64,000 bases of DNA from an uncultured Bdellovibrionales bacterium (GCA_903833275.1 CAILEP010000013.1:31639-95638), one strand, 5' to 3'; counted from the first letter of the stretch, positions 29,718-63,400 are shown. The notes: generated by a model not told the origin, from the letters alone. Numbers and translations: made by a program.

Positions 29718-29852
29718 GCACTTATCTATCGGAAATTCGTAGGGATAAGTGATGCAATCGCGATAGAATATAGACCTTTGTCGGGTATTGAAGTATTCTA
29801 GGAATTCAAACATATTGAGATAGCCGCATGAGCATGGCGTTAAGGAGTCCAA

Positions 29853-40198: not shown

Positions 40199-41635
40199 CT
40201 AGTGGGTGCGGGTCAGGTTGTTCTGGTTGATAAGGTCGCGAAGATCGTGGCCAAACCCAGATAGATTGGCCGGGTCTCGTATTGTAAGGCGGTTGTCGTC
40301 GACCTGAAGCTCTTGCTGGCCAACTTGTTGGCCAGGTTGGTGGTCGATCGAAAACTGCGCCTTCGGGATATTGGCGGTATTAACCGGTATTGAGCCTGAA
40401 ACATTGACCCCACCATCAAGAATCGCCAGCGCTCTGTAGGCGTTGAGACGCTTCTGGTACCGGGTTTTGCCGGCCAGCTTGCCGGGCTCAAGGTCGCCGG
40501 TTTCGGTAAGGTGGCGAATAATTCTTTGGGCATCAAAGTCGCCGAAGCGAGCCTTGATAAGGGCCGCAACACCGGTCACGACGGCTGTGGCCTGCGAGGT
40601 GCCTGTCATATATCCATAGTTGCCACCAGGTAACGTGGAGTAAATCTTTTTACCTGGAGCTGCAATATCAACCGATTGTTCGCCGTAGTTGCTTGAGGGC
40701 AGTACGTTGCGGTCTTCGTCGAAGGCCGTGACCGAGATAATATTGTCGAGGCCATAATCGGCGGGGTAGTACTTTTTGATATCCGAGTTCGACTGTTCGT
40801 TGCCGGCGGCGGCGACAAAGAGAATTCCCTTTTCGCGAGCAAGGGCAATGGCATCGCGTTCTTTATCGCTGGGCTCTAGACCGCCGCCCGAGTAGTTAAT
40901 GATGTTGGCGCCTTTTTGCACGCAGTAGCGAATCGCGCGTACGGTGTTAACCAGGTTATTGTTATTGGTTGATTCGGGGTCGTAGTATTTGGCGATAATA
41001 AGAGTGACGTGTGGGCTCACGCCGATGGCCCCGCGGCCGTTGACTCCTCCAGCGGCGCCGATGGCGCCGGCGATGTGGGTGCCATGACCGTGATGATCTG
41101 TGAGGTCGCCGTTGTTCGCGATAAAGTTACAGCCATGGATGTCGTCGACGCAGCCATCAGCATCGTCGTCGACTTGGTTGGTGGCCTTATCGCGGCCAAA
41201 CTGATCGCGACCACTTTCACCAGGGTTCACCCAAAGGTTCGGCTTGAGGTCAGGATGGTTGACATCGACGCCGGTGTCGATCACGCAGACCTTAACGTCC
41301 TTGCTGCCAAGGGCACGATGGCGCACCCAGGCTTCTTGAGTTTGTATCGATTTGAGATCCCACTTTTGTGACATAGCGGGGTCGTTTAAAAGCGCATCGA
41401 TTTCTTTTGTGGATTCGACTTTGGCCTTCATCGGTTCGCCGAGTTGGGTTTGGCGCACGGTCTTCGAGTTTCGGAGGCTGGCGAGATCGGCTTGCTCATC
41501 ATAGTTGGATTCGCTGCGCAGTTGGGCCACTCGCGCCATGTTGAATTGAATGGCGATAACGAGAGAGATAACACCGGCCCCAAATAGGATAAGGCCCTTT
41601 CTATCTCGTTTGTGTTGACCTTTCTGCTGAGCCAT
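40199..41635 (-). CDS. Secreted S8 subtilisin-like serine protease
   Basis: N-terminal anchor or signal (LILFGAGVISLVIAIQF). Triad contexts CVIDTGVD, HGHGTHIAG and GTSQATA. AAAGAGGTG ribosome-binding site upstream of the ATG. Confidence 0.85.
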   Translation of the reverse strand: MAQQKGQHKRDRKGLILFGAGVISLVIAIQFNMARVAQLRSESNYDEQADLASLRNSKTVRQTQLGEPMKAKVESTKEIDALLNDPAMSQKWDLKSIQTQEAWVRHRALGSKDVKVCVIDTGVDVNHPDLKPNLWVNPGESGRDQFGRDKATNQVDDDADGCVDDIHGCNFIANNGDLTDHHGHGTHIAGAIGAAGGVNGRGAIGVSPHVTLIIAKYYDPESTNNNNLVNTVRAIRYCVQKGANIINYSGGGLEPSDKERDAIALAREKGILFVAAAGNEQSNSDIKKYYPADYGLDNIISVTAFDEDRNVLPSSNYGEQSVDIAAPGKKIYSTLPGGNYGYMTGTSQATAVVTGVAALIKARFGDFDAQRIIRHLTETGDLEPGKLAGKTRYQKRLNAYRALAILDGGVNVSGSIPVNTANIPKAQFSIDHQPGQQVGQQELQVDDNRLTIRDPANLSGFGHDLRDLINQNNLTRTH

Positions 41636-43629: not shown

Positions 43630-44751
43630 TTAGGGTGAAAATTTAAAAAGGTATTTTTCGTTTTCATACGAACCTAGTTTATTCATGCGGGCCAATAGAA
43701 TCATAGGCCGAGTCGGGTCTTTGTATTTGGTGCAATCGACAGCCCAAAGCACAACGTCGTGGCCAGAAAATTTGTCATTGGCCACAATGGGCGCCTTATC
43801 TAAGTCAGTACTAACTCGACAGGCCTCAAGGGCGGCAGCAATAACTGGGTTGTTGGTTGGTTTCTTTACATCTACATCGTGAGTGAGCGGGTAGTCATAA
43901 ATGCGTACATCAAAATTACCACCCTCAAGAAAGGGCACCATCGCTCGTTCTGTGTCGAGAAATGCAAACACCTTTTCTTGGTCAAATTTACAGCCGAAGG
44001 CGCCTTTAACAGTGTCAGAGCAAAAGTCTTGTATATAAAGCTGCCGAGGTGTTTTTCGAATTAGTTTAAGCAAGGCCGCATTCGATATGGCGTGGGAGTC
44101 ACCGTAAAGCCCCAGGCGATAAAGGCTAATTTGCAAACCAAGCAAATTGAAATTGGGCTGATTTATTCTATTTGGGGTTTGAGTGAGCTCCCAGAGATAG
44201 AGATCAAAACTAAGTGCAGCGAAAAGTGGCTGAGGGCCCCCTCTTCGTACATTGCCTTCGTGAATAAGTGTTAAGGTTTGCACATTAATTGGCATTTCAA
44301 AAAACCGCGGCGTCAGGTAGGTGTGCCCTGCATTGTCAGACCAAGCAATGATTTCGAATTTTTTGAGATCAAACCCCGGAAACATTTCTGAAATAGTGGC
44401 GACATACTCTTGGCGTACGGCCTCGAGTTTTTTGGGGTCAACAGTTTCGACTGGTATATAGGTATGTATGTTGCCAATAGCATCTTCAGCCAAATACGAC
44501 GTAATTTCATCACTCAAGCCCGTAAGGTCTAAGGTCGCGTGAACGCCAGCGCGCAAAGCTTTTGGCAAAACATAAAAATCATCTTGGGTTTCAGGCGCCT
44601 TCACCTTGAGCCCTGCCTCGGCCAGCGTCACGCATTTCTGGGGAGTGATACAGACAACACCGCCGCCATGGGCGTCATCACCGGCGTGGGCATTTAGCGA
44701 AGTGAGTGCGGCAGCAAGTGCCAAAAGTGTGGGTAAAATATAAAGTTTCAT
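43630..44751 (-). CDS. Secreted hypothetical protein
   Basis: Signal peptide MKLYILPTLLALAAALTSLNAHA. No family recognised. The start overlaps the stop of the upstream HTH gene by 4 nt. Confidence 0.5.
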   Translation of the reverse strand: MKLYILPTLLALAAALTSLNAHAGDDAHGGGVVCITPQKCVTLAEAGLKVKAPETQDDFYVLPKALRAGVHATLDLTGLSDEITSYLAEDAIGNIHTYIPVETVDPKKLEAVRQEYVATISEMFPGFDLKKFEIIAWSDNAGHTYLTPRFFEMPINVQTLTLIHEGNVRRGGPQPLFAALSFDLYLWELTQTPNRINQPNFNLLGLQISLYRLGLYGDSHAISNAALLKLIRKTPRQLYIQDFCSDTVKGAFGCKFDQEKVFAFLDTERAMVPFLEGGNFDVRIYDYPLTHDVDVKKPTNNPVIAAALEACRVSTDLDKAPIVANDKFSGHDVVLWAVDCTKYKDPTRPMILLARMNKLGSYENEKYLFKFSP

Positions 44752-45590
44752 CGCGGTTCTCCTTTTTCTAACGGAAATAAACTGACAGTTAATTGGTAGA
44801 CTTGTTCTTTCTTTTCAGATTCTAAAAGTGCCGACATGCGTTCTTGAAACTCTTCAATTAGCTCGCGCGCCTCGGGCAATTTCGAAAGCGCAACCGCCAT
44901 AGTCATCGAGGTCATGGTACGAGTTTCAACCGGGTCATTTTCAAGCGACTCGATCGATTTTAGTCTCAAGGCTTTTTGCAAACTTCTTAACGCCGGGGTG
45001 CTTACCGATTTATTTGCGGTTGTGAGCTTTTCTTTTGTGCGCCAATATCGCTCATTTCGTTTCTCGAGCAAGCCGAGTTGCACGAGGCGATCGATTGCAA
45101 TTTTAATTGTAGTTTCGGTTTCGCCTAAGCGAGCAGCCAACCATTTAAGCCCGCGTTTGAAGGCCGGCCCTTTGCGATAGGCATCAGTGCGCACAAGCTG
45201 CAAAATAGCCATGTGTTGCCATTCGGCCATGGCCGAGAACAATTCATTTTCGAGATTTGTGCGATCAAGAAGCGCACGCTCAATTTCGGCGCGCCTTCGC
45301 AAGCTTGGTGCCGCTTGCGAATGGGTGTGCGTGGCGCCAGCAGCCTCATTGTGTTTATTAATGAGTGCGTCCAATATTTGATTTCGTTTGCGTGGGCTTA
45401 TATTCAAACGCTCACAAAACTGAACCGCCGTTTTCGCGGTGAGAGGGCGGCGCCCACTTAAGATAGACGAAAGCGTACCATTGTTGGTTTGCAATAGTTT
45501 TGCGAATGCACGCAGCGAATAGCGAGGGTTGCGCTTAAGTCGCAGCTGCAATTCGTCTCGTAAAAATTGAGTGGTCATTTCGTGTTTCAT
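44748..45590 (-). CDS. TIGR02147/DUF4423-like HTH protein
   Basis: The N-terminus (FLRDELQLRLKRNPRYSLRAFAKLLQTNNGTLSSILSGRRPLT) matches my recollection of the TIGR02147 family HTH region. Needs HMM confirmation. Confidence 0.55.
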   Translation of the reverse strand: MKHEMTTQFLRDELQLRLKRNPRYSLRAFAKLLQTNNGTLSSILSGRRPLTAKTAVQFCERLNISPRKRNQILDALINKHNEAAGATHTHSQAAPSLRRRAEIERALLDRTNLENELFSAMAEWQHMAILQLVRTDAYRKGPAFKRGLKWLAARLGETETTIKIAIDRLVQLGLLEKRNERYWRTKEKLTTANKSVSTPALRSLQKALRLKSIESLENDPVETRTMTSMTMAVALSKLPEARELIEEFQERMSALLESEKKEQVYQLTVSLFPLEKGEPR

Positions 45591-47257: not shown

Positions 47258-48112
47258 TTAGTTGGTTCTGCCGCCGCCGCATGCAGCAGTGAGTGGGCCG
47301 CGGCCGACGTCGTTGACGGTGACTGATTGCACCGAGCCACCCGCATTCGATACAACGACATAAACCGGGCTTGTGCCTGCTGTGATGGGGTCGGTGTAAC
47401 TGGAGAGGGTTGCCCCGGCAACTGCGAGGCCGTTTTTGTACCATTGATAACTGAGGGGGTAAGTCGCGACGTTGACTGCTGAAGCGACCACAGAAAGAAC
47501 CCAGCCGTCACCGGCACAAAAAACGGTTGTCGTCGGGGTGCCGAGTGGTTGAGTGGTAATTGTCGGTGGGGGTACTGGGGCCGGCGCTGCATTGGGGGCG
47601 CATGTCGCGTTTGTTGGAGTTGGGTTGAGAGCGTTAGAGGCACAGGTAAATGTCGCTGTGCCTTTGTTGGTCGAAATGTCGCTTACGGTTGCGGTTGCGC
47701 CGTTTAATACGCTGGCTCCGCCAGGGGCAGAGCAGGTGTAAGCGCCGACCTTCCACGTAAGCGTGGCGGGTTCGGCACAGCTGAGATCACAAGTGGACCC
47801 TGCGGTTTCGGTCAATACCCCAGCGTTGCAACTGTAGATCGCGCTGCCGAGAGAGGGCAAAGTGGCGTTAACGGTGATTGTTGAGCCGGAGGTCAAAGTT
47901 ATAATAGATGAGGGAGCCATACAGGTGGCCGTACCGACCGTCCAGAGGAGCGAGGCGGGTGGGGCGCAGGGGGCCGTTGCCGACGAAGCCCCACTGTACT
48001 GTGACAAATCGACTGACTTTGCGCAGTTTTGAAAAACCAGCGAAGTGATAGTTGAAGTGAAGAGCAGAACCACAAAAAGCACTTTTCGAGATTTTATAAA
48101 ATTTTGATTCAT
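47258..48112 (-). CDS. Lipoprotein with repeated Cys-bounded modules and a C-terminal Ig-like domain
   Basis: Signal MNQNFIKSRKVLFVVLLFTSTITSLVFQNC. Two units of about 60 aa (C.P..L.W.VG...C.AP...). An Ig-like signature is also present (PLSYQWYKNGLAVAGAT...PVYVVVSNAGGSVQS). Confidence 0.6.
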   Translation of the reverse strand: MNQNFIKSRKVLFVVLLFTSTITSLVFQNCAKSVDLSQYSGASSATAPCAPPASLLWTVGTATCMAPSSIITLTSGSTITVNATLPSLGSAIYSCNAGVLTETAGSTCDLSCAEPATLTWKVGAYTCSAPGGASVLNGATATVSDISTNKGTATFTCASNALNPTPTNATCAPNAAPAPVPPPTITTQPLGTPTTTVFCAGDGWVLSVVASAVNVATYPLSYQWYKNGLAVAGATLSSYTDPITAGTSPVYVVVSNAGGSVQSVTVNDVGRGPLTAACGGGRTN

Positions 48113-48162: not shown

Positions 48163-48936
48163 TTATTTAGCGTCAGAATTGAAGTTTTGCTGAGAAATAA
48201 TGTGCCAGAGGGTCTCATTAAAAGTGTCGGCGGCAATTATCAGCACAGGCAAAGTGTCGCGGCCTTTGTTTTTATGCAGGGCAGAGGGCATTTGGCCGAC
48301 CCCGCCGAATTGGCTGAACCAACTTTTTCGCAGAGCGAGCGAATTGCTGATAAAAGTCTTATTTTCAGGTTTCTTTTTCAGGCGACCGTACTCAAATGAG
48401 CTTAAAACCGAAAAGTCATTATTCGTGCTGATCGATTCGAGGGTTTGTTGGCCGACTTCGAGTTGGTGTTTAAATTTTTTTTTGCCCGGAGTGCGAATGG
48501 TGAAAATCACGTCAAAATCGCCATTGAAAAAACGCTCTTCAAGTTCGTTTTGATCAAAAACATCGAGCTCAACGATTTGTAGTTTCGTGTGTTGGTAAAG
48601 GCGATGGATGACGGTCAGGGCAAGAGAGCTTAAGCCTTCAAGCGTACCGACATGAATATGGGTTGGCACCTGCAGCTCGAGCACCTCGCGAATTGAACTT
48701 TGTAATTTTCGCGAGTTCTGTGAGTAGACCTCGGCAAGGCGAAACGCAGCTGGCGTCCACGCCGATTTTCGTTTGGCCGTACGATCAAGCAAAGTGACAT
48801 CGAATTCTTTCTCGAGTTGGGCCACGAGGCGTGAGAGCTGTGGCTGACTTAGGCCCACATGCGCGCTAGCGCCGGTCAGGTTTTTAAAATGAACGGCGCG
48901 GCTGAGAACTGACAGCGGCCAATGAAGTGTATCCAT
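48163..48936 (-). CDS. LysR-family transcriptional regulator (short)
   Basis: N-terminal wHTH: FKNLTGASAHVGLSQPQLSRLVAQLEKEFDVTLLDRT. Confidence 0.8.
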   Translation of the reverse strand: MDTLHWPLSVLSRAVHFKNLTGASAHVGLSQPQLSRLVAQLEKEFDVTLLDRTAKRKSAWTPAAFRLAEVYSQNSRKLQSSIREVLELQVPTHIHVGTLEGLSSLALTVIHRLYQHTKLQIVELDVFDQNELEERFFNGDFDVIFTIRTPGKKKFKHQLEVGQQTLESISTNNDFSVLSSFEYGRLKKKPENKTFISNSLALRKSWFSQFGGVGQMPSALHKNKGRDTLPVLIIAADTFNETLWHIISQQNFNSDAK

Positions 48937-48953: not shown

Positions 48954-49613
48954 TTAATGCATGAAGCTTTTCAAGATATTTTCAGCCATGGCATCAGCCA
49001 AATCGAAAAGATCTTCTTCTGACTTAATTTGCGCGCCGTGAAGCCCAGAACTGTGCATCAAGGCCAGGCCCCGCCACCCGGCAAGTAGCTGCAAGGCCAG
49101 GCTATCGAGCGGCGAATCGGCTCGCAAATCATGGCTTTCACCCAACACGATAACCAAGTTTTGTTGGGCAAGCTCAAAGGCCGCCGCCAGCGGGGGAGTG
49201 GTTTCGTCGTTATTTTGATATGAAAAAAGAAGGTGCGCTCTTTTGGGTGAGCGCCACGCTAGCTGCATAATGTTTCGCCCGACGTGTTGAATTTGAAGCT
49301 GCAACGAAACTGGGTAAAAAAGTGGCGCAGCTAATATTTTTTCGCCAATGTCGACGAGTGTCTTTTGCAGAACTTCTTCAATAAGCGCCGTTTTACTTTT
49401 GAAGTGGCGGTAGGGGGCATTGTGGCTGACGCCCGCGAGTTGCGCGGTCTCGCGTAAACTGAATTCGCCTCGGCGTGATTGTTGGCCTGGGCCCGCCTGT
49501 TGGCCTCGGCCTGGGCGGCCACCAGTTTCATGTTCAAGCAAATTTTCGGCGGCCATGATCAGTGCGTCTCTTAAATTACCGTGATGATATGTCATATGCC
49601 TTTGATAATGCAC
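48954..49613 (-). CDS. TetR-family transcriptional regulator
   Basis: HTH region FSLRETAQLAGVSHNAPYRHFKSKTALIEE. A Gly/Gln/Arg-rich insertion precedes it. The start is ambiguous (49613 or 49595). Confidence 0.8.
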   Translation of the reverse strand: MHYQRHMTYHHGNLRDALIMAAENLLEHETGGRPGRGQQAGPGQQSRRGEFSLRETAQLAGVSHNAPYRHFKSKTALIEEVLQKTLVDIGEKILAAPLFYPVSLQLQIQHVGRNIMQLAWRSPKRAHLLFSYQNNDETTPPLAAAFELAQQNLVIVLGESHDLRADSPLDSLALQLLAGWRGLALMHSSGLHGAQIKSEEDLFDLADAMAENILKSFMH

Positions 49614-49659: not shown

Positions 49660-50928
49660 CTAGCTATTGGTCGGGGCATTAGTTGAGACGCCATGCACTT
49701 GCGCCGGTGGGCTCAGGTAACTAAAAAAATCGGGCGACAGAATCATGGGTATTTCGAGTTTGAATCGGGCGTTTACGAAACTTAAAAATGTCCCACTGAA
49801 GCCTACCCATAGATCAGGAGTTGCCCAAAAAACGTCGTCGCTACTCCAAAACAGTGTGCCTTCTTTTTTTTGGGACAGAATATCCAGCGACGCCAGATCG
49901 TGGTCGAGTTCGATGTCGATTGAATGCAACGAATCTTTTTTGCAATCAATGCCTTTGCGCTTGAGCTCGCTGAGGAGGTTGAGTCGACCGGCGACCCCGT
50001 GGCAGAGAGTGGTGTTGTCATATCGGCGATTCGAAACAACTCGTTCAATCGCCCAATCCGAGACGCAATCAGTGGCTGTCGTTTTTGAAACCAAATCTGC
50101 CCAAAGCAGGCCGGCGGCACCGTGACACCAATTTAAGTTATTGGCCAACACGGGTGAGCCAGCGCGATACCTTAGCGATGTCTTCTGCGAATTCTGCGCG
50201 TATTTCAAGATTGATAGTCGAATTATTTCAGAAAGTTCGGTGATCGAGGGGTCTTCAATCAAATGGCTCAGTCGCTTAAGCACCATATAAAGGCCGATGC
50301 TTCCGTGGGCGACCCCAGAATAAATATCCTCGATGCCTTCATCGACGTTGGCGTCACGAATGCCTAAGACATTCTCTGAATTTTCAATTTTCTTAATCAA
50401 GGTCTTTGCCTTTTCCAAAACCAAATTGTGGATCCTGTTTGCCTGTGGGCTTAGGCTCGACTTTTCAAAGCTTTCAAGCCAAATGCAAGCCGCGTAAAGA
50501 ACACCTTGGCTGCCAGAGAAGAAATCAGAAAGCTCGACGTTTTCGAGCGAATAGATCAGCATTTCTTCTGCTGATTGGGTCATTGCTGTACTTCCAATAA
50601 AATTACCGGCTGCGGCTATACTCAGGGCCACCCCGGCATTACCAGTGAAAAAGCCATGGGATTTTTGGTCTATGCCGTTTTCGATTAGCCAGGTGGCGGC
50701 GAGGCGCACACGCTTTTCAATTAATTTTTTGAGCGGCTCACTTTTGAGATGGGGGCGAAGAGCAAGGAGAGCAAGTATAATCCCGCCGCTACCGAGATTA
50801 AGACCGCGCATCTGAGCATCTGGGTATAGATGTTCATTTCGCCAATAACCCCGACTTTCGGTTTCGTTGCAGACCCAATAACTCTCGAGTTTATTTAGGT
50901 ATTCGGCGGCCATTTTATCAAGAGACAT
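49660..50928 (-). CDS. Stand-alone LanC-like lanthionine cyclase
   Basis: LanC signature motifs SGVAHGSIG, NWCHGAAGLLWA and TLCHGVAGRL, giving the Cys/Cys-His zinc-ligand set. Repeated GxxG-containing helices fit an alpha-toroid. The start overlaps the kinase ORF's end by 11 nt. Confidence 0.8.
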   Translation of the reverse strand: MSLDKMAAEYLNKLESYWVCNETESRGYWRNEHLYPDAQMRGLNLGSGGIILALLALRPHLKSEPLKKLIEKRVRLAATWLIENGIDQKSHGFFTGNAGVALSIAAAGNFIGSTAMTQSAEEMLIYSLENVELSDFFSGSQGVLYAACIWLESFEKSSLSPQANRIHNLVLEKAKTLIKKIENSENVLGIRDANVDEGIEDIYSGVAHGSIGLYMVLKRLSHLIEDPSITELSEIIRLSILKYAQNSQKTSLRYRAGSPVLANNLNWCHGAAGLLWADLVSKTTATDCVSDWAIERVVSNRRYDNTTLCHGVAGRLNLLSELKRKGIDCKKDSLHSIDIELDHDLASLDILSQKKEGTLFWSSDDVFWATPDLWVGFSGTFLSFVNARFKLEIPMILSPDFFSYLSPPAQVHGVSTNAPTNS

Positions 50929-52321
50929 TATCTAATCCCCCAGCTAGAAGGTTTTGAATATCAGAAATTTTAGGGCGATCAATTGGGTTCGGGCTTAAGC
51001 AGGCAAGAATTATATTTTTCAAAGGTCTGTTGATTTTGGATATTTCGACCAAGCGACGCAATCGATCGTCACCGCTTGCAATAAATGAGGGATTGGTGCC
51101 GGTGCGTAGATGAAATAGGCAGCAGCCGAGGCTGTAAATATCCTGTTCGAATGAAGCCTCGATAAAGCGAGAGGGCTGGCTGGCCGCAGCGGCAATTAAT
51201 TCTGGCGAGTCATGGCCAGGGGTGCGAAAGCCATCCTGAACTTCACCCACGCGTTTGGCGTTGTCGAAGTCGAGAATGGCGAGTTGTCCAGCTTCAGTGC
51301 CGGCCCCGCGGTCATGAATAGTTGCAGAAGCCCCAAGAGCTAGAAAGTTTGCAAGTTTCAAATCACCGTGCACGATGCCGAGTGCGTGAATCTCTGCGAC
51401 CTGATCGGCGAGGAGTGCGTCTATTGAGGTCGAATGAAGGGCCAGTTTGTCGAGTCGAATGCCGGCAATATTTTTTACCGCAAGGGTCGTCCATTTTTCA
51501 TTTTGCCAAAACTCTAAAGGAGTCGGGACAAAACTGAGTTGTCTTAAGGCTTCAAGGCTTCGAGCTTCATTTGCAATTCTTGCTGCCGCAGCGTGGTCTT
51601 TTGTCGGTACTCGTTTAACAAAGACTTTTTCTATATTTCGAAGGTCAATGGCCTCGGCGACTTGAGACGGAAATGTTTTTATGACCTTGGTGACCCTAAA
51701 TGAAAAGCCGTTGGGTGATTCGATTAATTCACGACTCTCACTCCGCTCGCTATTGTCGCTTTCATACTTGTCTATTACGATTTCGGCATTGGCTAAGCTG
51801 CGGTAATAACGAACAGGTTGCCCTCGGCTGTTCTCAAAGAAAAGAGAGCGATAGGGCCCTCGGCGAAAAAAAAGTGTCGTGCTGTTTTGGGCTAAACTTT
51901 CGTTTGGAACATCGGGGCCGTCGAAGTCTTTAATATGGGCCACAAACCAGTCGACGACCTGTTGAAACTCTCCGTCGTTGTTCGGATAAAAGGTCATTAC
52001 TTTACCAATTTGGCTTGAGCCGGCCGCCCCGCTATTGATGGTCTCAACACCATTCAATGTCGACGGAAGCTTAAAGGCCACACTTGGAAACGAATGCCAG
52101 TTTGCAATCATTGCCGTTATCACACTAGAAAGGCCATTTTTGCTAAACGAGGCGTGGATCTTTCGCCCGCTGTCTCCTGGCGGATTATCAAGTGGTATAA
52201 ATAATCGCCAGGCAAACCCGCGAGTTTTAATTGAAGAGGTATTCCATTTCTCGAGTTCAGAGGCTGAACTTTCAAGGTCTTGCAATTTTTCGCCAAATTG
52301 TGATTGCATGAAATACCTCAC
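50918..52321 (-). CDS. Lanthipeptide-synthetase-like lyase + Ser/Thr kinase didomain protein (no cyclase domain)
   Basis: The C-terminal half has kinase motifs VFVKRV (Lys), HGDLKLANF (catalytic loop) and ILDFDNA (DFG-like). The N-terminal half has RKIHASF, AFKLPS and GKVMTFYPN. These resemble the WK(L/I)H(V/I)S and GKF(I/V)T(I/V)YP motifs I recall from LanL/LanKC phospho-Ser/Thr lyase domains. Confidence 0.65.
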   Translation of the reverse strand: MRYFMQSQFGEKLQDLESSASELEKWNTSSIKTRGFAWRLFIPLDNPPGDSGRKIHASFSKNGLSSVITAMIANWHSFPSVAFKLPSTLNGVETINSGAAGSSQIGKVMTFYPNNDGEFQQVVDWFVAHIKDFDGPDVPNESLAQNSTTLFFRRGPYRSLFFENSRGQPVRYYRSLANAEIVIDKYESDNSERSESRELIESPNGFSFRVTKVIKTFPSQVAEAIDLRNIEKVFVKRVPTKDHAAAARIANEARSLEALRQLSFVPTPLEFWQNEKWTTLAVKNIAGIRLDKLALHSTSIDALLADQVAEIHALGIVHGDLKLANFLALGASATIHDRGAGTEAGQLAILDFDNAKRVGEVQDGFRTPGHDSPELIAAAASQPSRFIEASFEQDIYSLGCCLFHLRTGTNPSFIASGDDRLRRLVEISKINRPLKNIILACLSPNPIDRPKISDIQNLLAGGLDNVS

Positions 52322-52333
52322 TCAAATTCGAGT

Positions 52334-53014
52334 TTAGTGCTTTGAAATGCTATTCGCGCCCGAAGTTTCTTTCTTAACACTGGCAAAATTGCCATATTCG
52401 ACAGTGTTTGAACCGCTGAGCTCCATTTGTAGAGAATGGCCCTCAAGATTCAAAAGGTTCGCTGAGTTCGCGCCGCTTGCAACGAGAATAAGATCTTTTA
52501 CATTGCCACCAATCTTAATTGTGCTGCTGCCAGAAAGATTGACGTGAAAATCCGTGGTTTGAGAAAGATCGAGTTCAAGTTGCGAGCGGCCAGACAGTTC
52601 AACGCTAGAGAGCGAAAGTTTTTGAATCTTGCCCATAGGCAAATTGACAGCGCCGCTTAATTCAATTTTCGCTAGCGATGACAAGTTTTTAACCTTCAAC
52701 CGTAGAGTGGGTCGCTTTGATGGGCTAATCCAGTGGCCCATCGAGATCTTGAGTTCGCCAAGATCGGACTTTATTGAAACTTGATCAATGAGGTTCTCAT
52801 CTATTGTAAACGAGACCGTATTATCTAATCCTGATTCGACATTAACTTCGAAGTTGCCACTGATATCAATTGAGTTAATTGAGTTTTCGAGCGAAACGGT
52901 TCGAGTCGACTGCAAGCCGTTGCCATTTGTCAATGGCCAGGCGTGCACGAGTGATGAAGTCAGAATTGATGCTGCCAACATGAGGGCCTGTTTAAATCGC
53001 GTTTGAGTGTACAT
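52334..53014 (-). CDS. DUF2807-like (GIN-domain beta-helix) secreted protein
   Basis: Signal peptide ...LTSSLVHA. Repeated S-G-x-x-x-(I/V) rungs (LSGSSTIKI, VASGANSANL, LSGSNTVEY, TSGANSISK) are typical of DUF2807. Confidence 0.55.
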   Translation of the reverse strand: MYTQTRFKQALMLAASILTSSLVHAWPLTNGNGLQSTRTVSLENSINSIDISGNFEVNVESGLDNTVSFTIDENLIDQVSIKSDLGELKISMGHWISPSKRPTLRLKVKNLSSLAKIELSGAVNLPMGKIQKLSLSSVELSGRSQLELDLSQTTDFHVNLSGSSTIKIGGNVKDLILVASGANSANLLNLEGHSLQMELSGSNTVEYGNFASVKKETSGANSISKH

Positions 53015-53507
53015 AATTTGGGTTCTCCATTTCTTTGTTTAATTCGGTTTTTATGAAAAATAGGCCAAGCCCTGATTTGCGGCAATAGTCGCGCAGGGAT
53101 TCAGACCCGCCAAGGGGGCCGGTGCCGAGTGACTGTCGTCCCCCCATAAAAAGAGAATGAATGCGAACAAGTTTTCGAGCTTCATTTAAAAACTCATAAG
53201 CATTCATGTTGAGGTCGATGTCGTCAAACTCACAGACCACAACACGATCCGCCCCGGCGGCGATCAATTCAGCTACTTTTTCGTCAACGGGGGGATACTT
53301 CGCTCTTTGCTCGGTATTGTTGGGCAAAAAGACAGCTGGGTGTGGATGAAGCAGAATAACAGCAATGCCAACTTGATTGGCTCGCGCAACTGTCTGCAAT
53401 TGCGCGATCAATTCACTGTGTTTAAGTTGCCAGGGCTGATATGCCCCCACGCACGAAATGTAACTTTCGTGCGTTGTTTCGTTTGATTTCACCAACCTCG
53501 TTCTCAT
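52992..53507 (-). CDS. FMN adenylyltransferase (RibF N-terminal, FAD_syn)-like protein with degenerate HxGH motif
   Basis: It aligns by eye along its length with the E. coli RibF N-domain. LLHPHPAVF matches LFEPQPLELF, AAGADRVVVCEFD matches ECGVDYVLCVRFD, and FMGGRQSLGTG matches VGDDFRFGAG. GNFDGVHRGH is replaced by GAYQPWQLKH. There is no riboflavin kinase domain. Confidence 0.6.
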   Translation of the reverse strand: MRTRLVKSNETTHESYISCVGAYQPWQLKHSELIAQLQTVARANQVGIAVILLHPHPAVFLPNNTEQRAKYPPVDEKVAELIAAGADRVVVCEFDDIDLNMNAYEFLNEARKLVRIHSLFMGGRQSLGTGPLGGSESLRDYCRKSGLGLFFIKTELNKEMENPNYVHSNAI

Positions 53508-53513
53508 TTGAGC

Positions 53514-53912
53514 CTACACAATGCTTGACGGGGTTTCGATCATGCGAGCGCTCGTTGCGCAGCAACCAGAGCAGGCGCACGTGCCATTGCAGGCGAACTC
53601 AATCCCTTCAACGTATTTTTCTTCGCCAAGAATCTCCATTTGTGCGTCAAGGCTGATATTACGCGCAGACATAACTTTAATTGGATTTTGAGTGAACTCG
53701 ATTGCAAGCGTCGGGTCGGCTTTCAAATCTAGTTTGAGCTGATTCACTTTGGCTTGAATTTCAGCAAAGATTTGTACGCGATTGCCTAACTCTTGCGCTC
53801 TTGGCGTTGGGACTTCTGCTTTTTCGTTTGCTGCATTTGCGTTTACTGCGGCGACCATGGCTGACGCCAATGCTCCTAGTTCTAACGTGGTTTGCATTAC
53901 TGTCTTACTCAT
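53514..53912 (-). CDS. Candidate lanthipeptide-type precursor (132 aa; long leader plus Cys/Ser/Thr-rich C-terminal core)
   Basis: The ATG at 53912 is preceded by AAGGGGA 6-7 nt upstream. The C-terminal 29 aa, IEFACNGTCACSGCCATSARMIETPSSIV, hold 5 Cys and 7 Ser/Thr. It is the first gene of the operon carrying the lyase-kinase and LanC. The track's 206-aa version (to 54134) overlaps the upstream gene and lacks an RBS. Confidence 0.55.
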   Translation of the reverse strand: MSKTVMQTTLELGALASAMVAAVNANAANEKAEVPTPRAQELGNRVQIFAEIQAKVNQLKLDLKADPTLAIEFTQNPIKVMSARNISLDAQMEILGEEKYVEGIEFACNGTCACSGCCATSARMIETPSSIV

Positions 53913-54084: not shown

Positions 54085-54882
54085 CTACGGCTTTGGCTCG
54101 ATTGTGGTGGATTCAAATTCTTTGAGACGCTCAATTAACCATTCGGGGTCATCAAGTGGCAGGTCGTGACCGGCGGTGGGGTGAAACTTGAGTGTGATTG
54201 GTGCTTGAGGCAAAGCATTTGTAGAAAGCTTTTCGGCGATCATTTTCGAGCATCGCGAATCGACCATGCGATCTTTGAGCGACGATACGATCAGCGTCGG
54301 GATGGCGATTTGAGACGGGCAGCTGAACAAGGCAGCAGCGGTTGTCTGCCGCCAAACCTTATCGCGCAACATCGGGTGCTTTTTGGCGATGTCGACCATG
54401 GCGTTGATGATGACCGGGTCTTTGTCTTTCAAATTTGAAATTAACTTGAGCGACTGAACTTCTCTTTTTTCAGGTTCTTTCGCCGCGGCCATACGGCCGG
54501 CCGAATACAAAGCAAAAGGTGAGAGGCGTTGAAAAAGCGAAGAGACGTCGCGGGCGCTTGAATTGATGACGACGAGTTTTTTGAAGTCATCTGGGTAGCG
54601 CGCCACCCAGTCGAGCGCAATCATGCCGCCGAGAGAGACGCCAAGTAGCCCGAAATTATTTTGCGGGCCGCTTGAGAAAAACCGCTCGCGCAAATAATCG
54701 GTGTGGGCGGCGATTGAGAGCGGCACTTTGGCGTTACTTTCGGTGCCAAAGCCAGGCAAATCAAGGCATAGCACTTGGCTCGACGAATCAGCGTTCCTGC
54801 GCAAGGCCATTTGTAAAGCCTCTGGTAGATCGAGCCAGTGTTCTTTAACTCGGCCCAGCCCACGTAAAAGTAACCAGTTCAT
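54085..54882 (-). CDS. Alpha/beta-fold hydrolase
   Basis: Nucleophile elbow GVSLGGMIA (GxSxG) and a C-terminal HPTAGHDLP (catalytic His region). 265 aa. The start overlaps the M14-like gene's stop by 4 nt. Confidence 0.8.
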   Translation of the reverse strand: MNWLLLRGLGRVKEHWLDLPEALQMALRRNADSSSQVLCLDLPGFGTESNAKVPLSIAAHTDYLRERFFSSGPQNNFGLLGVSLGGMIALDWVARYPDDFKKLVVINSSARDVSSLFQRLSPFALYSAGRMAAAKEPEKREVQSLKLISNLKDKDPVIINAMVDIAKKHPMLRDKVWRQTTAAALFSCPSQIAIPTLIVSSLKDRMVDSRCSKMIAEKLSTNALPQAPITLKFHPTAGHDLPLDDPEWLIERLKEFESTTIEPKP

Positions 54883-55988
54883 GAATTGCCTCGATCGCGC
54901 CAGACGCTGTGGTTTAAAGTGGCTTGTTTAAAAAAATCTAAAAGAGGTCGATGGCGGCGCATGATGCGCCGATAGCGATGGGGCAAAATGGGGTTAAAGA
55001 TGCCGTGGCGGGTGAAGAGTTGCATTGGGTTTTTCTTTAGCCAGCTCCAGGAACCCATTTCAAGACACCAGGGGATAAAAATACGACCGTCGCTCGCGAA
55101 ATTTTTTTGATGCTCGTCAAAAATAAAATCCCACGGGTCGCCGTGTAGTAAATAACTTTGATGCTGGGGTTCGACAATATAAACGTGATGAGGGTAGGCC
55201 CCCGCGAGCAATTCAGAAACGCGATTGACTTGCGCTCGATACGGAAAGTTTTCACGACTTCGTGAGTACGGAAACCAAAGTCGGTCGCGCATGCCAAAAC
55301 CCGAATGGACATCGAGCGCCATTGAAAAACGGCTGGGCAGCATTTCGCGTTTTAAAAAATCGATGAGCGTGCGCGTTTCGACCTCCATCTCGGCCCCGGC
55401 TTTGCCGCGATACCAAGGCAGGCGGGGGCTAATGCGGTGGCCCGAAACGAGGGGTTTCAAATCACCATGGGCTTCGACCGGGGCGTTTCTCATAATGTCA
55501 ACCCCGCGCGGGTTCGAGCGCGAGTTCAGATACATGCCACCGGGGTTTACAATCGGTATTGCAACGAGCCGCATATGTCGAAAAGTTTCTTGTAAGGTTT
55601 CATCCCATGCGAGTTGTGAAAGCAGAGGTGTAAGAAAATTGATGGCCACATGAGAGCCGACGCGTTCGAGGCCGTGGACCCCGGCAAAGATACCAAAGGT
55701 CGGTAGCGAGCGATCATCAGGCCCGAGTGTAAGGCCGTAGATCGGTAAAGTGCGATCATCGGCTTGCACTTCGCTCAGTTTTTCAACACGACCGAATTTT
55801 TGCCACTGCTCAATCAGGGCGTTTTGATTTTCAATTTCAACAAGGTTGGGGTTGAGCATTTGTTTAAGATACCTTCTTGCATCGAATAATTGTATCGAAG
55901 TTGTGTCGAATTTTTTCGCGGCTAATGACATCTTGCGTGACATTAAGATCGACAGTATTTTTGAAATCGTGTTCGAAGAGTGATGCAA
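54879..55988 (-). CDS. M14-family zinc carboxypeptidase-like protein (DUF2817-like)
   Basis: FAGVHGLERVG contains the HxxE zinc motif. A later ALDVHSGFG supplies a second zinc His context. Confidence 0.6.
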   Translation of the reverse strand: MHHSSNTISKILSILMSRKMSLAAKKFDTTSIQLFDARRYLKQMLNPNLVEIENQNALIEQWQKFGRVEKLSEVQADDRTLPIYGLTLGPDDRSLPTFGIFAGVHGLERVGSHVAINFLTPLLSQLAWDETLQETFRHMRLVAIPIVNPGGMYLNSRSNPRGVDIMRNAPVEAHGDLKPLVSGHRISPRLPWYRGKAGAEMEVETRTLIDFLKREMLPSRFSMALDVHSGFGMRDRLWFPYSRSRENFPYRAQVNRVSELLAGAYPHHVYIVEPQHQSYLLHGDPWDFIFDEHQKNFASDGRIFIPWCLEMGSWSWLKKNPMQLFTRHGIFNPILPHRYRRIMRRHRPLLDFFKQATLNHSVWRDRGNS

Positions 55989-57427: not shown

Positions 57428-60400
57428 ATTAAGAAAAGAATCTTGGCCATCGTTATTGCGACCATGGCATTGCCGTTTATTTTTCAAGCCTGCGGCGTAA
57501 AACAACCAACGGTTGATCGCAATCTATCGTCTGCCGGCTATAGCCATTCGGGCAACGAGACAAACTGTTCGATGTGCCACGAAGGTCAACGCCCAAGTTC
57601 CACGCTATCGTTTAGCAATTTAAATTTTAATTCGTTGCCCTTTGATTACACAACACATGGTGCGGGTTTTGATTGTTACGAGTGCCATGCCAATAACACG
57701 ATGGGTTTTCGCGCACCGGCCGAATGGGCCAACGGGCGCTACAAGCATCCGGCGTCGCTGACAAAGTGTGCGACCTGCCATACTCCGCAACGGCCGGTGA
57801 ATTCTGTGGGGCCGAACACTTACACCGCTGTGGCATTTGTTCATTCGGTGAGCGGGCTTGGCGACTGTGCTGGTTGTCACCAGGCGACAATGGCCACGCA
57901 ATTTGCTTCGCTGGCAGATTGGCAAGGTGGGGCTGGGGCGCCTGCGATTTTAAAATTTGATGTTCGAAATAGTATTTCGGTGAACGAACAAATACCGACT
58001 TACTCGGCGACCAGCATTTCAATTCTGACGCCGCAAACGCAAGTGATCCCGATGAACATGAGCCACGCATCGGCGCAAATACCTCAGTCGGTCATTAACA
58101 ACTGCGTGCTTTGCCACGTGAGCGCTTATGCGACCCCACCGAGTTATTACCCTGGGGTTTTTCACGCCGCTATCGGCACCCAGCCATCAACTTGTGTCGA
58201 TTGCCATCGTGTAGTCGACATGCCGGTTGGTTTTGTTGGCACCACAAACGTCGGCCGCAACCCGGCGGGCCCTGAAATGAAACATGACGCCGTTGTGTGG
58301 TCGAAAAATTTGAGCGGCAGTTATGCGGCGACCAGTTCGGCCCTCGTTACCAATGATTGCAATGTCTGTCACCAGGTGCCGACCAACACTTCGCTCGGTG
58401 AGGCGTCGTGGCGCGTACCGACCACTGCGATCAGCGGCGGGAGTGTTTTTTATCACGCGTCGCTTGCGGCCAAAGGTCTCTCGCAACCGACTTCGTGTTT
58501 AGATTGCCACGCCAACAGCATGATCGCCGGGCCGCAACCAGCGGTGGCCTTGAACACGACTGTCATGCGCTTTGACCATTCTTGGAGTGTGTTGGGCAGT
58601 GGTGATTGCGTCACCTGTCACACGGCGCCGACGACTTTGGCGCAGACATCTTCTTTACTCGCCACTCCGTGGGTGGGCGGTGTTTTTCACCAACCGGCGA
58701 TCGATGCAACGTTGACGAGATGTGATTCTTGTCACGATGTTGCGGGCCGTTCGCAACGACCGACGGGCACCAGTTTGACAACTCCAAATGGCGTCGTTAA
58801 TAATTTCACCGCGTACAACGCGGCCGTCGCCCCTTTTGATACCTCAACACACGGCGCGCCACTTGATTGCATCGTCTGTCACGCGGCGACTGTGACCAAA
58901 TCGTCGGTCGCCAATTGGGCGGGCGGCAATTTCTATCATTTGGCTGCGAACACCGCGGGCACATTGACCTCATGTGTAGGCTGCCACGAAAGCGAGAGAC
59001 CGCTTTTAACCGTTGGCCCTAATGCTTTAATCGGTTCGGCGTTTAGTCATTTAACAAGTGGGCAGGGTGATTGCGTCGCCTGTCACCGCGCGACCGTTGT
59101 CGGCGGCACTGTTAATGATGGGCTGGGGCCGGTTTTGATCACCGGGGGTAAATTTGCAAAGTACAACACGACCAACACCACCACATGGGGCGATACTGAT
59201 TGGTATGGTGGGGTCACTTATAACCCGACCGGTCTTATGGGCCCGAACCCTGACCCCAATACTCCGCCGACTACGATTTCAGCAATTCAGTTGAGCTCGA
59301 ACACGGCCAATCTTTCGCAAATTACGACGAGCATAAACACTCAAACTCTCATTGGCCAAATGAGGCACACGTCAATTCAGGTGCCAGCCGTATTTTTTAC
59401 CGGCGCGAATTTGACCACCGCCAGCCCAGATGGTTCTTGCGCTGGCGCTTATTGCTGTTCGACTTGCCATACAAATTTGAAAGCGGCAGTGCCGGCTTTT
59501 GTGCCAGGCATTTTTCACGCAACTCTTACCGCTAATTCTTTGACGGCACCAACCGCGTGCCAAGATTGCCACGTCAATACAACTCCGAAAGATATCGTTG
59601 GGGCCGCGCCGCTACTCGCACCAATGGACCACGCCGCCGCTTTGTCGGGGGGCGGTTCTGCTGCTGCGAGCTTTGATTGTTTTGCCTGCCATAGTGCGAG
59701 CCCTCAAGGCCCACCCAATACATTTGGTGGTGGAACATTTCATGCGAACTTGAGCGGGCAGAACCCAAATAATTGCACGACCTGCCACTTTACGTCTTTG
59801 CCAACCGGGCTTTTTGCGCCGGTGCCCAATTATTCTCTAGCTTCAGCTTATGTAACGGGCATGAGGCACACGTCGACATTTGTCGCTGGTGATTGCGCCG
59901 CTTGCCATGCGCTTTCGAATATTTCAACATTGCCGGTCGTGACTTCAAGTTGGACGGGCGGTTTGTTTCATAAAAACACTTTGCCGAACGGTCTGACCTC
60001 ATGCAGTGATTGTCACACCACTAAGCCTTCGGGCTATGCGCAAAGTCTCAACGACACTCAGCACATGAATCACTCATCAACCAATGTCGGCAATGATTGC
60101 GCGATTTGCCATCAGGCTGAGTTGGTTATTGGTGCAACCCCGAATTCGTGGAGCCGATCGGCCCTCTTTCACACCGCCGTCCCGACCCCCGCTAGCTGTC
60201 GAGAGTGTCATGGCCTTAGTAACGGCGGCGGGGCCGTCGTTGGCACTAACAATGATTTGCCGGGCGTGGCGAATTACGGCGCGACGCTAATTAATTCAGG
60301 GACTTTAACCACATCGCCTGTGGCCGTGGCCGGCACCTATGATAAAATCGATCACACTGAAATTGATGTTGCCGGTCGAGATTGCAATTACTGTCACACG

Positions 60401-63400
60401 ACAGCGGGTATGGCGGCCAATGCGGGCGTCAAGTGGAAGTCGGCTTCGTTTCACGTTCAATTTTCTTCGAATACGCAAATCACTGGCCGTTGCGATTCTT
60501 GCCATATTGGTTTGAAGCCGACAGTTGTAGTCAATGGTGAAGATCACAGTCAGCTCGGTACAACCGATTGCAACTCATGCCACAATTATCCCGGCACGGG
60601 CATTGTCGGCGGCAGTGGTTCTTCGGCACCAAACTGGTTGGGCGCGACTTCATTGCCGACAACTTTAAAAACGGATTTGAATAAGAGTGTCGTATTGGTT
60701 GTGCAAATCCCGACCTATAATAGTACGTCGATATCATTATTGACCCCGCAGCCCGATGTTATCGCCATGAACATGAATCACTCGACAACCCAGGTGCCGC
60801 GCGCCAACCTCGATGATTGCATCATTTGTCATGCCGGTGCTTTTTCAAAACCGGCGAATTATACGGGCGGGGTATTTCATAATTCGTTGACCGCCGCAAC
60901 CTTGGCGCAGCCGACAACTTGTAGCGAGTGTCATGCGACTACCGATATGCCCATCGGTTTTATCGGCCCCACCGATTCAACTCGCACCCCCGCGGGCCCC
61001 GAGATGAAACACAACGCCGTTGTTTGGCAGAAGAATATCACCAGCGGTGTTTTCGCAGCGACAGCCACCCCGATGGTCGCCAACGACTGCGTCGTTTGCC
61101 ACCAAGTGCCGACCGCCTCACCGGGCAGTGGTAATGGTTGGAATATCCCGCCTGCTGCAATTAGTGCGGGCGCTGTTGCGTACTATCACGCGTCACTCGG
61201 CAACTCGAGCGTGGCGCAACCGGCTTCGTGTTTAGATTGCCACGCCAATAGCCGACCTGTTACGCCCGTTACAGGTACACTTTCGAACTTCGATCATTCG
61301 GCGACAATCGCCGGCATGGGCGATTGTAATGCTTGTCACGCGACGCCCACATCGGTGGCGCAAGTGACAGCTCTCAAACCGTGGTCGGGCGGAGTCTTTC
61401 ATTCGGTCGCGATTAACGCGACACTCACGTCTTGTAACTCATGCCACAATTCGCAGAGACCTACGGCTGCGACTTTTACAACTTCAGGCGGAGTGACGAC
61501 GGCCTTCACCGCCTACAACGCGGCCGTGAAACCATTTGATCTTGCGTCTCATGGCGGCGCTTTAGACTGCAAAGTTTGTCATACGCCAGGCACGTACACA
61601 GGTGCCGCGAGCTGGGCCGGCGGGGCCTTCGATCACTTGGCCGCCAACACGGCGGGCACTCTCACATCATGCTCAAACTGTCATACGACACAACGGCCAG
61701 CTGGCACGGTTGGCCCCAATGCTCTCATTAATTATGCATTCAATCACACGTTAAACGGGTCAGGCGATTGTATCGCTTGTCACCGCGCTTCGGTTGTTGG
61801 CGGCACGGTGAATGATGGCAATGGTAATATTATTATTTCAGCCGGTGGGCATTTCGCTAATTACGCGACGGCAAACGGGGCCGCTTGGGGCGATAGCGAT
61901 TGGTATGGCGGCGAAACTTATGACTCTATTGCGCTGATGGGCCCGAACCCGGCGCTGACGCCGCTTTCGATTACGGCATTGCATCTCAGTTCGGTCAGTG
62001 CGCCGCTTTCGCAGATCTCAGTCACCAGCAATACCCAAACTTTTGCCGGCCAGATGATGCATACGTCGACAGCGGTGCCGTCCGTTTTCTTTACCGGCGC
62101 GAACTTAACAACGGCCAACTCCAACGGCACTTGCGCGGGGGCGTATTGTTGTTCGACCTGTCATGCGAATTTAACGAACGCTACTCCGGCTTACTTGCCC
62201 GGTGTATTTCACGCGACAATTACAGCCCATGCGCTGCCGTCGGTGACGAAGTGCAAAGACTGTCACATTAATACGGCCCCAAAAGATATCGTCGGGGTGG
62301 GTAGCCCGAGTTTGCCGTTAACTATTGGGCTCACGACGCCGATGGATCACGCGGCTTTGCTCTCGGGCGGTGGCACGGCGTACTCTTCGTTTGATTGTTA
62401 CACTTGTCACGCGGCCAGCACGCAGGGCCCGCCGAATACTTTTAGTGGCGGTAAATTTCATGCAAGTCTTGGCGCCCAAACCCCGAGTAACTGCACGACT
62501 TGCCATTTTACGACTTTGCCGATCGGTACGTTTGCGCCGTTGCCGCTCTACCCGGCGGCGACCACTTTCGTGAGTGGCTTTAAACATTCGTCGGCTTTTG
62601 TTTCGGGCGATTGTTCTTCTTGTCATACGCTGACTAATATTAGTTCGTTGCCAGTGGCCACTACTTCTTGGGCCGGCGGCCATTTTCACAAAACAAATGG
62701 CCCCGTTGGCATTACGTCTTGCACCGAGTGTCACTCGTCGGCGCCTTCAAGTGTGACGATGAGCTCGAACGATTCGCAGCACATGGATCACACTGCAGTG
62801 TCGGCCTTGTATGACTGCGCGGTTTGCCACACGGGTGATTTAGTGGCGGGTACAACCCCCACCGCGTGGAACAAACTAACAAAGTTTCACACCATCGCGC
62901 CTAACCCAGCGACTTGCCAAGAATGTCATGGCCTTGCCAACGGCAGTTTAGTAGCTGGCAATGGCAATGATATACCGGGCGTTCTTAATTATGGTTCTAA
63001 CGTTGTTAGCACGGATTCGATCACAACTTCGTCGGTGGCACCAGCCAGTACGCATGATAAAATAGATCATGCGGTAGTTGATGTCGGCAGCCAAGATTGC
63101 AACTTCTGTCACACGGTCGTGGGCATGACCGCCGGTGGCGGGGTTAAATGGATGGCGGCAAAGTTTCATGCGAAGTTTGCGTCAAATGCGCAAATTCTCG
63201 AGCGTTGCGATTCTTGCCACACGAATTTGAAGCCGACAGTTATTGTCGGTGGTGAAGATCACAGTTTGATCGGCACTCAAGATTGCGCGAAATGCCATAT
63301 GTACCCGGGCACCGGTGCGGTCGGCGGGGCGGGCGCGACGGCGCCAAATTGGTTGGGCGCAGTGGCTGTGCCGACGACCCCGAAATTTGATGCGACGAAA

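Follow-up and report, generated by a model that had tools for sequence, protein, structure and literature searches.

Lanthipeptide classes are defined by enzyme architecture. In LanL and LanKC enzymes, Ser and Thr residues are phosphorylated at the expense of ATP, the phosphate is removed by OspF-type elimination, and a LanC fold carries out the zinc-assisted addition of Cys. In the class IV LanLs, VenL and SgbL among them, a single polypeptide runs from an OspF-type lyase through a Ser/Thr kinase to a LanC-type cyclase that has Cys-Cys-His ligands. Here we describe a five-gene cassette (positions 49660–53912, minus strand) in a 64,000-nucleotide stretch of DNA from an uncultured Bdellovibrionales bacterium (GCA_903833275.1 CAILEP010000013.1:31639-95638; the whole stretch is hereafter called the window, and positions are counted from its first letter), in which the same domains occur in the same N-to-C order but the cyclase is a separate open reading frame (ORF). 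We consider it probable that the cassette is a class IV-type lanthipeptide pathway, producing a RiPP, a peptide made on the ribosome and modified after translation, with thioether rings, and that its three-domain LanL is encoded as two translationally coupled proteins.

The five co-directional genes, with the order and coordinates given in the original prediction, are borne out by ORF calls and by Pfam and NCBIfam profile searches of the window ORFs, from which all family assignments here derive. The first gene (53514–53912) encodes a 132-aa candidate precursor (LanA-like), which has no family match; in it, a Sec-like signal at the N-terminus is followed by a helical, putatively NHLP-like leader, then by a Cys/Ser/Thr core, and last by a tail that varies. 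It is followed by genes for an FMN-adenylyltransferase (FMNAT)-like protein (52992–53507; 171 aa; Pfam FAD_syn, E = 1.4e-13), a DUF2807 (GIN/toastrack-like) protein with its own signal peptide (52334–53014; 226 aa; Pfam DUF2807, E = 9.5e-21), the lyase-kinase (50918–52321; 467 aa; RamC_N, E = 5.7e-15, and Pkinase, E = 2e-14), and the stand-alone LanC-type cyclase (49660–50928; 422 aa; LANC_like, E = 2.2e-28). The precursor gene, preceded at 7 nt by the Shine-Dalgarno sequence AAAGGGGA, is separated from the FAD_syn gene by 6 nt; the FAD_syn and DUF2807 genes overlap by 23 nt, and the lyase-kinase and LanC genes by 11 nt. The 6-nt gap and the 11-nt overlap had been given correctly before. The reported 12-nt gap between the DUF2807 and lyase-kinase genes had to be revised: The likely start of the lyase-kinase is the ATG at 52309, which has a GAGG Shine-Dalgarno sequence 8 nt upstream and is also the start in metagenome gene calls. 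This start widens the gap to 24 nt and gives a protein of 463 aa, the length of 467 aa being right for the ORF.

The lyase-kinase has the class IV LanL model, NF038150, as its best NCBIfam match, over model positions 9–454 (E = 7.5e-32; LanKC model, E = 7.6e-24). Its N-terminal half had been proposed to resemble the lyase domains of LanL and LanKC enzymes, and lyase similarity is indeed detectable, both in the RamC_N match and in alignments to the solved LanKC/LanL-type structures 8car, 9wop, and 8sao, where GRKIHAS, FKL, IGKVMTFYP, and FFRRGPY pair with lyase-domain segments. The kinase half contains the HGDLK..N and DFD motifs that had been listed for it, as the catalytic loop VHGDLKLANF and as LDFDNA; the ATP-anchoring Lys listed with them is probably K236 in VFVKR, an assignment that is uncertain. 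As judged from these matches, the protein is the N-terminal two-thirds of a LanL, an OspF/RamC_N-type phospho-Ser/Thr lyase joined to a Ser/Thr kinase.

The LanC protein matches the same LanL model over positions 505–784 (E = 1.1e-21). Its residues His208, Cys268, Cys309, and His310, in the motifs AHGSIG, WCHGAAG, and LCHGVAG, correspond to the catalytic His and a putative Cys-Cys-His zinc set, so that the WCHG and CHG ligand motifs reported earlier are in place (C268, C309, and H310). Of 109 relatives, fused or fragmentary, that were aligned with the window LanC, 94 keep this His/Cys/Cys/His pattern, and we therefore regard these relatives as class IV-type. Residues ~21–384 of the window LanC align with the cyclase domains of the fused LanL relatives that the lyase-kinase retrieved. 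In the LanC half, the LanM model gives a slightly higher score than LanL; the LanKC model trails LanL in both halves and in all relatives tested.

When 1.84 billion representative proteins were searched exhaustively (HMMER) with the lyase-kinase, most of the matches were proteins of 850–900 aa, and only two proteins in the whole set score below E = 1e-30. The only close homologue is P0003 (443 aa, 41% identity, E = 4e-85), encoded on an 11.7-kb contig by the fourth gene of a cassette that runs in the order 132-aa gene, FAD_syn (170 aa), DUF2807 (224 aa), lyase-kinase (443 aa), and LANC_like (402 aa), with an 11-nt overlap between the last two. A more distant lyase-kinase, P0018 (422 aa, 28% identical to that of the window), lies on a 19-kb contig in a cassette of 121-aa gene, FAD_syn (154 aa), DUF2807 (245 aa), lyase-kinase (422 aa), and LANC_like (411 aa), the overlap here being 20 nt. 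The accessory genes of these two cassettes are known from gene tables (order, length, and family). Flanking genes differ in all three cassettes, and the five genes therefore form the unit. Invariant in the three split members are K54, H56, K84, K107, R153, H318, D320, K322, N325, and D351. A word-indexed protein search with the lyase-kinase found itself and one weak kinase match only; a scan of metagenome contigs was dominated by generic kinases and recovered no cassette, and a scan of genome contigs gave fused LanLs only, from another cluster type with P450, PhyH, and TauD neighbors. The cassette family is rare.

Other stand-alone lyase-kinases of ~450–495 aa were seen in the course of these searches (P0084 on contig L002, P0094 on L166, P0044, and P0115), several of them with the motif SQRGKGGVY. 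On their short contigs, P0084 and P0094 have no adjoining LanC; these four proteins may be cyclase-free dehydratases of another pathway. The cluster type found in the genome contigs is a separate proteobacterial class IV-type family, in which a fused LanL is accompanied by P450, PhyH, and TauD oxygenases (L003, L004, and L174/L175). Its precursors are short (L003, 7674–7928 region; L004, 7674–7898) and end in the conserved core HMCPWHTC(A/Q)ATRH, and the family appears to be uncharacterized.

Some fused LanL relatives come from Proteobacteria. Among those from metagenomes, P0005 (contig L169) has a DUF2807 gene and a signal-bearing precursor upstream, and P0090 (L172; a 5.3-kb contig) has a signal-bearing precursor and, downstream, an S41 peptidase. 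Downstream of the best fused match, P0004 (L171), lies a gene for a FAD_syn protein of 273 aa, which shares 30% identity and the motifs GxWxPxxxxH and LLHPHPA with that of the window. Other accessory sets accompany P0111, the Azohydromonas LanL on L003, and that of a gammaproteobacterial metagenome-assembled genome on L004.

Two ORFs in place of one could also arise by a sequencing or assembly frameshift, or by recent pseudogenization, in an ordinary single-chain LanL. Frameshift-fragmented LanL genes do exist: P0021 (536 + 84 + 264 aa) and P0031 (526 + 253 aa) are colinear with fused LanL over three or four frames and include partial LanC pieces only, and we rejected both as natural splits. 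The window, in contrast, has one frame change, and its LanC is full length at 422 aa. A multiple alignment places the break in the variable linker between the C-terminus of the kinase and the first cyclase helix, and a fused LanL used as tblastn query matches the window in two frames only, with the break between fused residues 451 and 510. At the translational-coupling junction (50918–50941, minus strand), a GGGGGA Shine-Dalgarno sequence (50941–50936) within the 3′ end of the kinase gene stands 7 nt before the LanC ATG (50928–50926), and the lyase-kinase TGA lies at 50920–50918. Different ENA or Logan samples supplied four further contigs of this species, with identities to the window of 99.93%–100%; three of them, L001, L163, and L164 (99.93%–99.995%), extend across the junction and show no indel at it. 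In L164 (ENA ERZ18668490) a 1-nt indel relative to the window is accompanied by a LanC call of 374 aa, not 422; either the assembly is in error here or the strain has a truncated cyclase. With the fragmented genes, this contig speaks for the frameshift. Against it stands the recurrence of the split, with overlaps of 11 and 20 nt, in two cassettes with lyase-kinases that share no more than 41% and 28% identity with that of the window. We conclude that no frameshift artefact underlies the split; the frameshift explanation, to which we attach almost no probability, is effectively refuted. The prediction of a split class IV-like enzyme with a translationally coupled LanC thus stands, on the LanL model matches, the colinearity, the break in the linker, and the two divergent cassettes.

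Earlier experiments make such a two-protein arrangement credible, since VenL and SgbL without their cyclase domain still carry out complete dehydration (PMC8341899) and ThurKC's lyase-kinase and cyclase domains, artificially split, are active in trans as separate polypeptides, both being required (PMC10604976).

The first gene of the P0003 cassette encodes P0153, a homologue 57% identical to the window precursor. ISLDAQxEILGEEKYxEGxEFxCNGTCACSGCCATS is invariant between the two, and their C-terminal tails differ. The core CNGTCACSGCCATS (residues 108–121; 53550–53591, minus strand), with five Cys, two Thr, and two Ser, is identical in P0153 and is the presumed site of dehydration and thioether formation. 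The precursor also aligns with small ORFs adjoining the fused LanLs of L169 (166 aa), L171 (~103 aa, no gene call), and L172 (176 aa). A leader motif, [AS]D..F.......[ND]P..V[LM]..RG[IL]...Q.E[IL]L, is common to the aligned precursors; the core opens with Cxx(x)TC, and D66, P77, Q91, L95, C108, T111, and C112 are invariant. Cys is confined to the C-terminal core in all five precursors. Because of the homologue with its invariant core, the alignment to precursors beside fused LanLs, and the restriction of Cys to the core, the 132-aa ORF is, as far as such comparisons can tell, a genuine precursor, as had been proposed for this Cys-rich ORF. Word-indexed searches with the precursor found only itself and P0153, also when a two-sequence profile was used, and the window peptide has no match to the RiPP leader models TIGR03793, NF038399, and TIGR04509. 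AlphaFold gives the precursor a mean predicted local distance difference test (pLDDT) score of 55, with helices over residues 37–101 at a pLDDT of ~70–80 and no confident structure in the core.

Residues 1–27 of the precursor (53832–53912, minus strand) constitute a putative Sec signal, in which the hydrophobic stretch LGALASAMVAAV (12-residue Kyte-Doolittle mean 2.14) precedes A-N-A, an A-x-A at residues 25–27. Our signal calls combine Kyte-Doolittle means of 12-residue stretches with A-x-A. Four of the five precursors (window, P0153, L169, and L172) open with a 12-residue hydrophobic stretch (Kyte-Doolittle 1.7–2.1) followed by A-x-A; such an N-terminus is similar to the signal peptide of the DUF2807 protein and is absent from the L171 precursor (0.76) and from the three cytoplasmic proteins of the cassette (≤0.44). 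Three of the four loci with signal-bearing precursors also encode DUF2807, and the fourth, the 5.3-kb contig, has the S41 peptidase instead. A Pfam scan of the ORFs between 47258 and 55988 found no LanB, LanM, LanT/C39, or ABC transporter domain, in agreement with the original statement that no LanT-type exporter is present. The Sec-like signal may explain the missing LanT exporter.

Both accessory genes, FAD_syn and DUF2807, are present in the two divergent cassettes. The FMNAT-like protein consists of the FAD_syn domain only and ends at 171 aa without a riboflavin-kinase half, and its scores against the RibF equivalog models are all far below cutoff; it may be non-canonical or inactive. A sequence search of the PDB gave no match for it, and AlphaFold without an alignment reaches a pLDDT of 42. 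The DUF2807 protein weakly matches a lipoprotein, PDB 3jx8 (E = 0.007). Its N-terminal hydrophobic stretch has a Kyte-Doolittle mean of 1.88, and it is presumed to be a periplasmic partner.

With the domain identities, the catalytic residues, the conserved split, the conserved five-gene order, and the precursor homology observed, we infer the following chemistry on this substrate. The 132-aa precursor would be bound via its helical leader, and the cytoplasmic lyase-kinase would use ATP to phosphorylate Ser and Thr of the core and then eliminate the phosphate, giving dehydroalanine or dehydrobutyrine. The predicted dehydration sites are Thr111, Ser115, Thr120, and Ser121, possibly together with residues of the tail. 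The separate zinc-dependent LanC would add the five core cysteines to these residues, closing rings of lanthionine or methyllanthionine. Export of the modified peptide probably goes through Sec, since the precursor has a Sec-type signal and a LanT transporter is absent, and the signal would be cut after Ala-Asn-Ala. In the periplasm or outside the cell, the DUF2807 protein would partner the peptide, perhaps in immunity or as a chaperone or receptor. The degenerate FMNAT-like protein would act as a conserved accessory, either in tailoring or as a non-catalytic scaffold.

Beyond the detached cyclase, the locus departs from the described class IV systems in several respects. Both halves of the enzyme fall far short of the 650-bit cutoff of NF038150, as do the fused relatives, at 260–362 bits; the precursor is long (~130 aa), its N-terminus looks like a signal, and its leader is putatively NHLP-like; genes for FMNAT-like and DUF2807 proteins belong to the cassette as conserved members; and the host is a diderm, as indicated by a TamA-like Omp85, TamB, SurA, and PBP2 in the window. 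The class III LanKCs (ThurKC, CurKC, and LabKC) have homologous lyase and kinase domains, but their cyclases lack the zinc ligands, and class III scores are lower for both halves; since the window LanC has these ligands, we do not assign the locus to class III. The class V proteins LanK, LanY, and LanX likewise distribute dehydration by phosphorylation and elimination, and cyclization, over separate proteins. In class V the kinase is APH-like, the lyase HopA1-like, and the cyclase not a LanC. The window lyase is instead of the RamC_N/OspF type and fused to a Pkinase domain, and its cyclase is a true LanC; lyase, kinase, and cyclase all belong to other families, and the locus is therefore not class V. 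With class I it has a stand-alone LanC in common, but no LanB (PF04738/PF14028) occurs in the scanned ORFs of the window or in the gene tables of the related cassettes, and the locus is for that reason not class I; dehydration here would use a kinase and a lyase rather than glutamyl-tRNA, and the LanC is most like the cyclase domains of LanLs. Division of a lanthipeptide dehydratase into separate polypeptides has a precedent in split LanBs, for example that of pinensin (PMC7268733). The uncharacterized fused LanL clusters of metagenomes (P0004/L171, P0005/L169, and P0090/L172) have homologous precursor leaders and a core opening with Cxx(x)TC, a DUF2807 gene adjoins in L169 and a FAD_syn gene in L171, and the L169 and L172 precursors bear signals; their enzymes, however, are single chains, and none has the full five-gene order. 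A paper on dehydrazole, checked for a related kinase or lyase, proved not relevant.

In the open-access PubMed Central and bioRxiv literature we found no description of a split LanL or LanKC, no link of DUF2807 or FAD synthetase to lanthipeptides, and no lanthipeptide precursor with a Sec signal. Within that literature, the original description of the locus as an undescribed two-component variant holds for the split enzyme, but "two-component" is too narrow for a cassette of five genes.

Other explanations bear on what becomes of the peptide. Once its signal is removed, the 132-aa product could be a small exported protein of ~105 aa with a lanthionine-stapled or metal-binding Cys cluster. Such a protein would work in the periplasm jointly with the DUF2807 protein, its task concerning, for instance, the envelope or stress. 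The CxxxCxCxxCC spacing found in the precursor resembles metal-binding motifs, and a Sec-like signal ahead of a well-conserved helical region of ~60 residues (predicted pLDDT 70–80) would suit such a protein, as would a conserved cassette without leader protease or LanT and the co-occurrence, in three of four loci, of signal-bearing precursors with a DUF2807 protein that has its own signal peptide. However, the helical region repeatedly matches NHLP-clan leader models at the same position, if below threshold; the aligned precursors differ widely in core length and sequence, as is typical of leader-core RiPPs; and a complete set of lyase-kinase and LanC favors thioether chemistry over plain metal binding. 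We therefore hold a small exported protein to be unlikely.

We give little credence to a product of a distinct class, in which the peptide is dehydrated but the LanC or the FMNAT-like protein installs a change other than intramolecular lanthionine, for example by adding a small-molecule thiol, as eukaryotic LanCL does, or by nucleotidylation of a side chain. A conserved protein of nucleotidyltransferase fold, for which the literature searched offered no precedent in lanthipeptide clusters, would fit such a product, and the LanC-like proteins of humans cluster with the clade of class IV cyclases (PMC7268733). Yet the window LanC aligns best with LanL cyclase domains, and five Cys and four Ser/Thr among 14 invariant core residues are ideal for intramolecular rings, while the FMNAT-like protein has no HxGH signature and may be inactive, and its gene is absent from some related fused clusters.

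Several points weigh against a class IV-type lanthipeptide pathway itself. The two halves score 110.5 and 76.9 bits against the NF038150 cutoff of 650, and because both lie so far below it, the enzymes are, by this measure, a remote relative of the curated LanL family. The precursor is unusually long at 132 aa, and in the window it has no family match above threshold; its homologues match NHLP-clan leader models in the equivalent segment, but only at E = 0.001–0.09 and 13–19 bits, against cutoffs of 34–51 bits, and the repetition of these matches at one position is suggestive only. The signal-like segment has a single Lys before it and a Glu at position 11 in the window precursor, and that of P0153 is without any basic residue. 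The FMNAT-like protein has lost the HxGH signature, GNFDGVHRGH, the nucleotide-binding signature of Escherichia coli RibF, corresponding to GAYQPWQLKH. The first gene in the P0018 cassette enters the comparison by its length (121 aa) and position, and the P0018 lyase-kinase is nearer to fused LanLs than to the window protein: Either the branch of the window and P0003 evolves fast, or the split is old, or it arose more than once. A single origin of the split is likely, the identical gene order favoring it.

Downstream of LanC, Pfam identifies a TetR gene (48954–49613) and then a LysR gene (48163–48936). These two regulators do follow directly, as had been noted, but they are not conserved beside the other cassettes, and neither are the peptidases upstream. 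A minus-strand ORF directly downstream of LysR (47258–48112) encodes a 284-aa protein without a family match, with a lipoprotein-like N-terminus (…LVFQNC) and repeated Cys-containing segments; it is kept beside the cassette in the same-species contigs that reach this far (L001, L163, and L164). On the other side, 172 nt upstream of the precursor and on the same strand, lie genes for an alpha/beta-hydrolase (S33-like, 265 aa) and an M14 zinc carboxypeptidase (369 aa), which together occupy 54085–55988, overlap by 4 nt, and are absent from both related cassettes. These two enzymes could serve as leader or tail processors of the precursor. Just past the precursor stop, ~33 nt inside the FMNAT-like gene, there is a perfect 10-bp inverted repeat (53449–53474) with a fold z-score of −2.0 on the mRNA strand and no U-tract; by analogy with hairpins after lanA genes elsewhere, it might tune the ratio of precursor to enzymes. 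No Rfam match was found within the window, and a sigma-70 scan found no promoter upstream of the precursor. PADLOC returned matches to generic kinase domains only, with none for LanC, DUF2807, the FAD_syn-like protein, or the peptide, and we rejected a reading as an anti-phage defense system. Farther from the cassette, a TIGR02147-family paralogue (44748–45590, minus strand; E = 3e-30) belongs to a family that is expanded in Fibrobacter and Bdellovibrio-like bacteria and gives the only hint of lineage in the window besides the diderm markers. A 652-aa subtilase (36465–38423, plus strand), with a fervidolysin-like prodomain and Peptidase_S8, ends in a PilZ domain, an unusual pairing of protease and c-di-GMP-binding domain; another S8 protease is encoded at 40199–41635. 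On the minus strand, 27780–29897 encodes a 705-aa protein in which a response-regulator receiver domain is joined to a DnaJ J-domain. Toward the end of the window (~57460–64000, plus strand; L163, 1–6434), G+C climbs from ~0.48 to ~0.55, and beyond 58 kb the sign of the GC skew is reversed; according to its gene table, the overlapping contig has a single giant ORF there (>3159 aa, continuing past the contig end) with multihaem cytochrome domains of the MtrC/MtrF type.

In a published genome-mining survey, a class III or IV call required that a single protein hold both the LanC-like and the kinase domain (Walker et al.; PMC7268733), and under such a rule split cassettes end up as "unclassified" and escape notice. 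With a naturally split LanL, class IV-type chemistry would reach into a rare group of diderm bacteria. Such a LanL would offer a native system in which to study communication between lyase-kinase and cyclase, a question left open by the in-trans work on ThurKC (PMC10604976), and separable parts for peptide engineering. The linkage to DUF2807 and FMNAT-like proteins and the signal-bearing precursors point to an export route and to accessory functions that we did not find described for lanthipeptides in the literature searched. Tentatively, and short of favoring it, we put forward that the cassette represents an undescribed, diderm-specific lanthipeptide pathway, in which a two-piece LanL acts with a degenerate FMNAT-fold protein, a Sec signal ahead of an NHLP-like leader delivers the ringed product to the periplasm without LanT, and a dedicated DUF2807 protein handles it there. 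If so, lanthionine chemistry in these bacteria would serve a function located in the cell envelope, rather than that of a classical secreted antibiotic.

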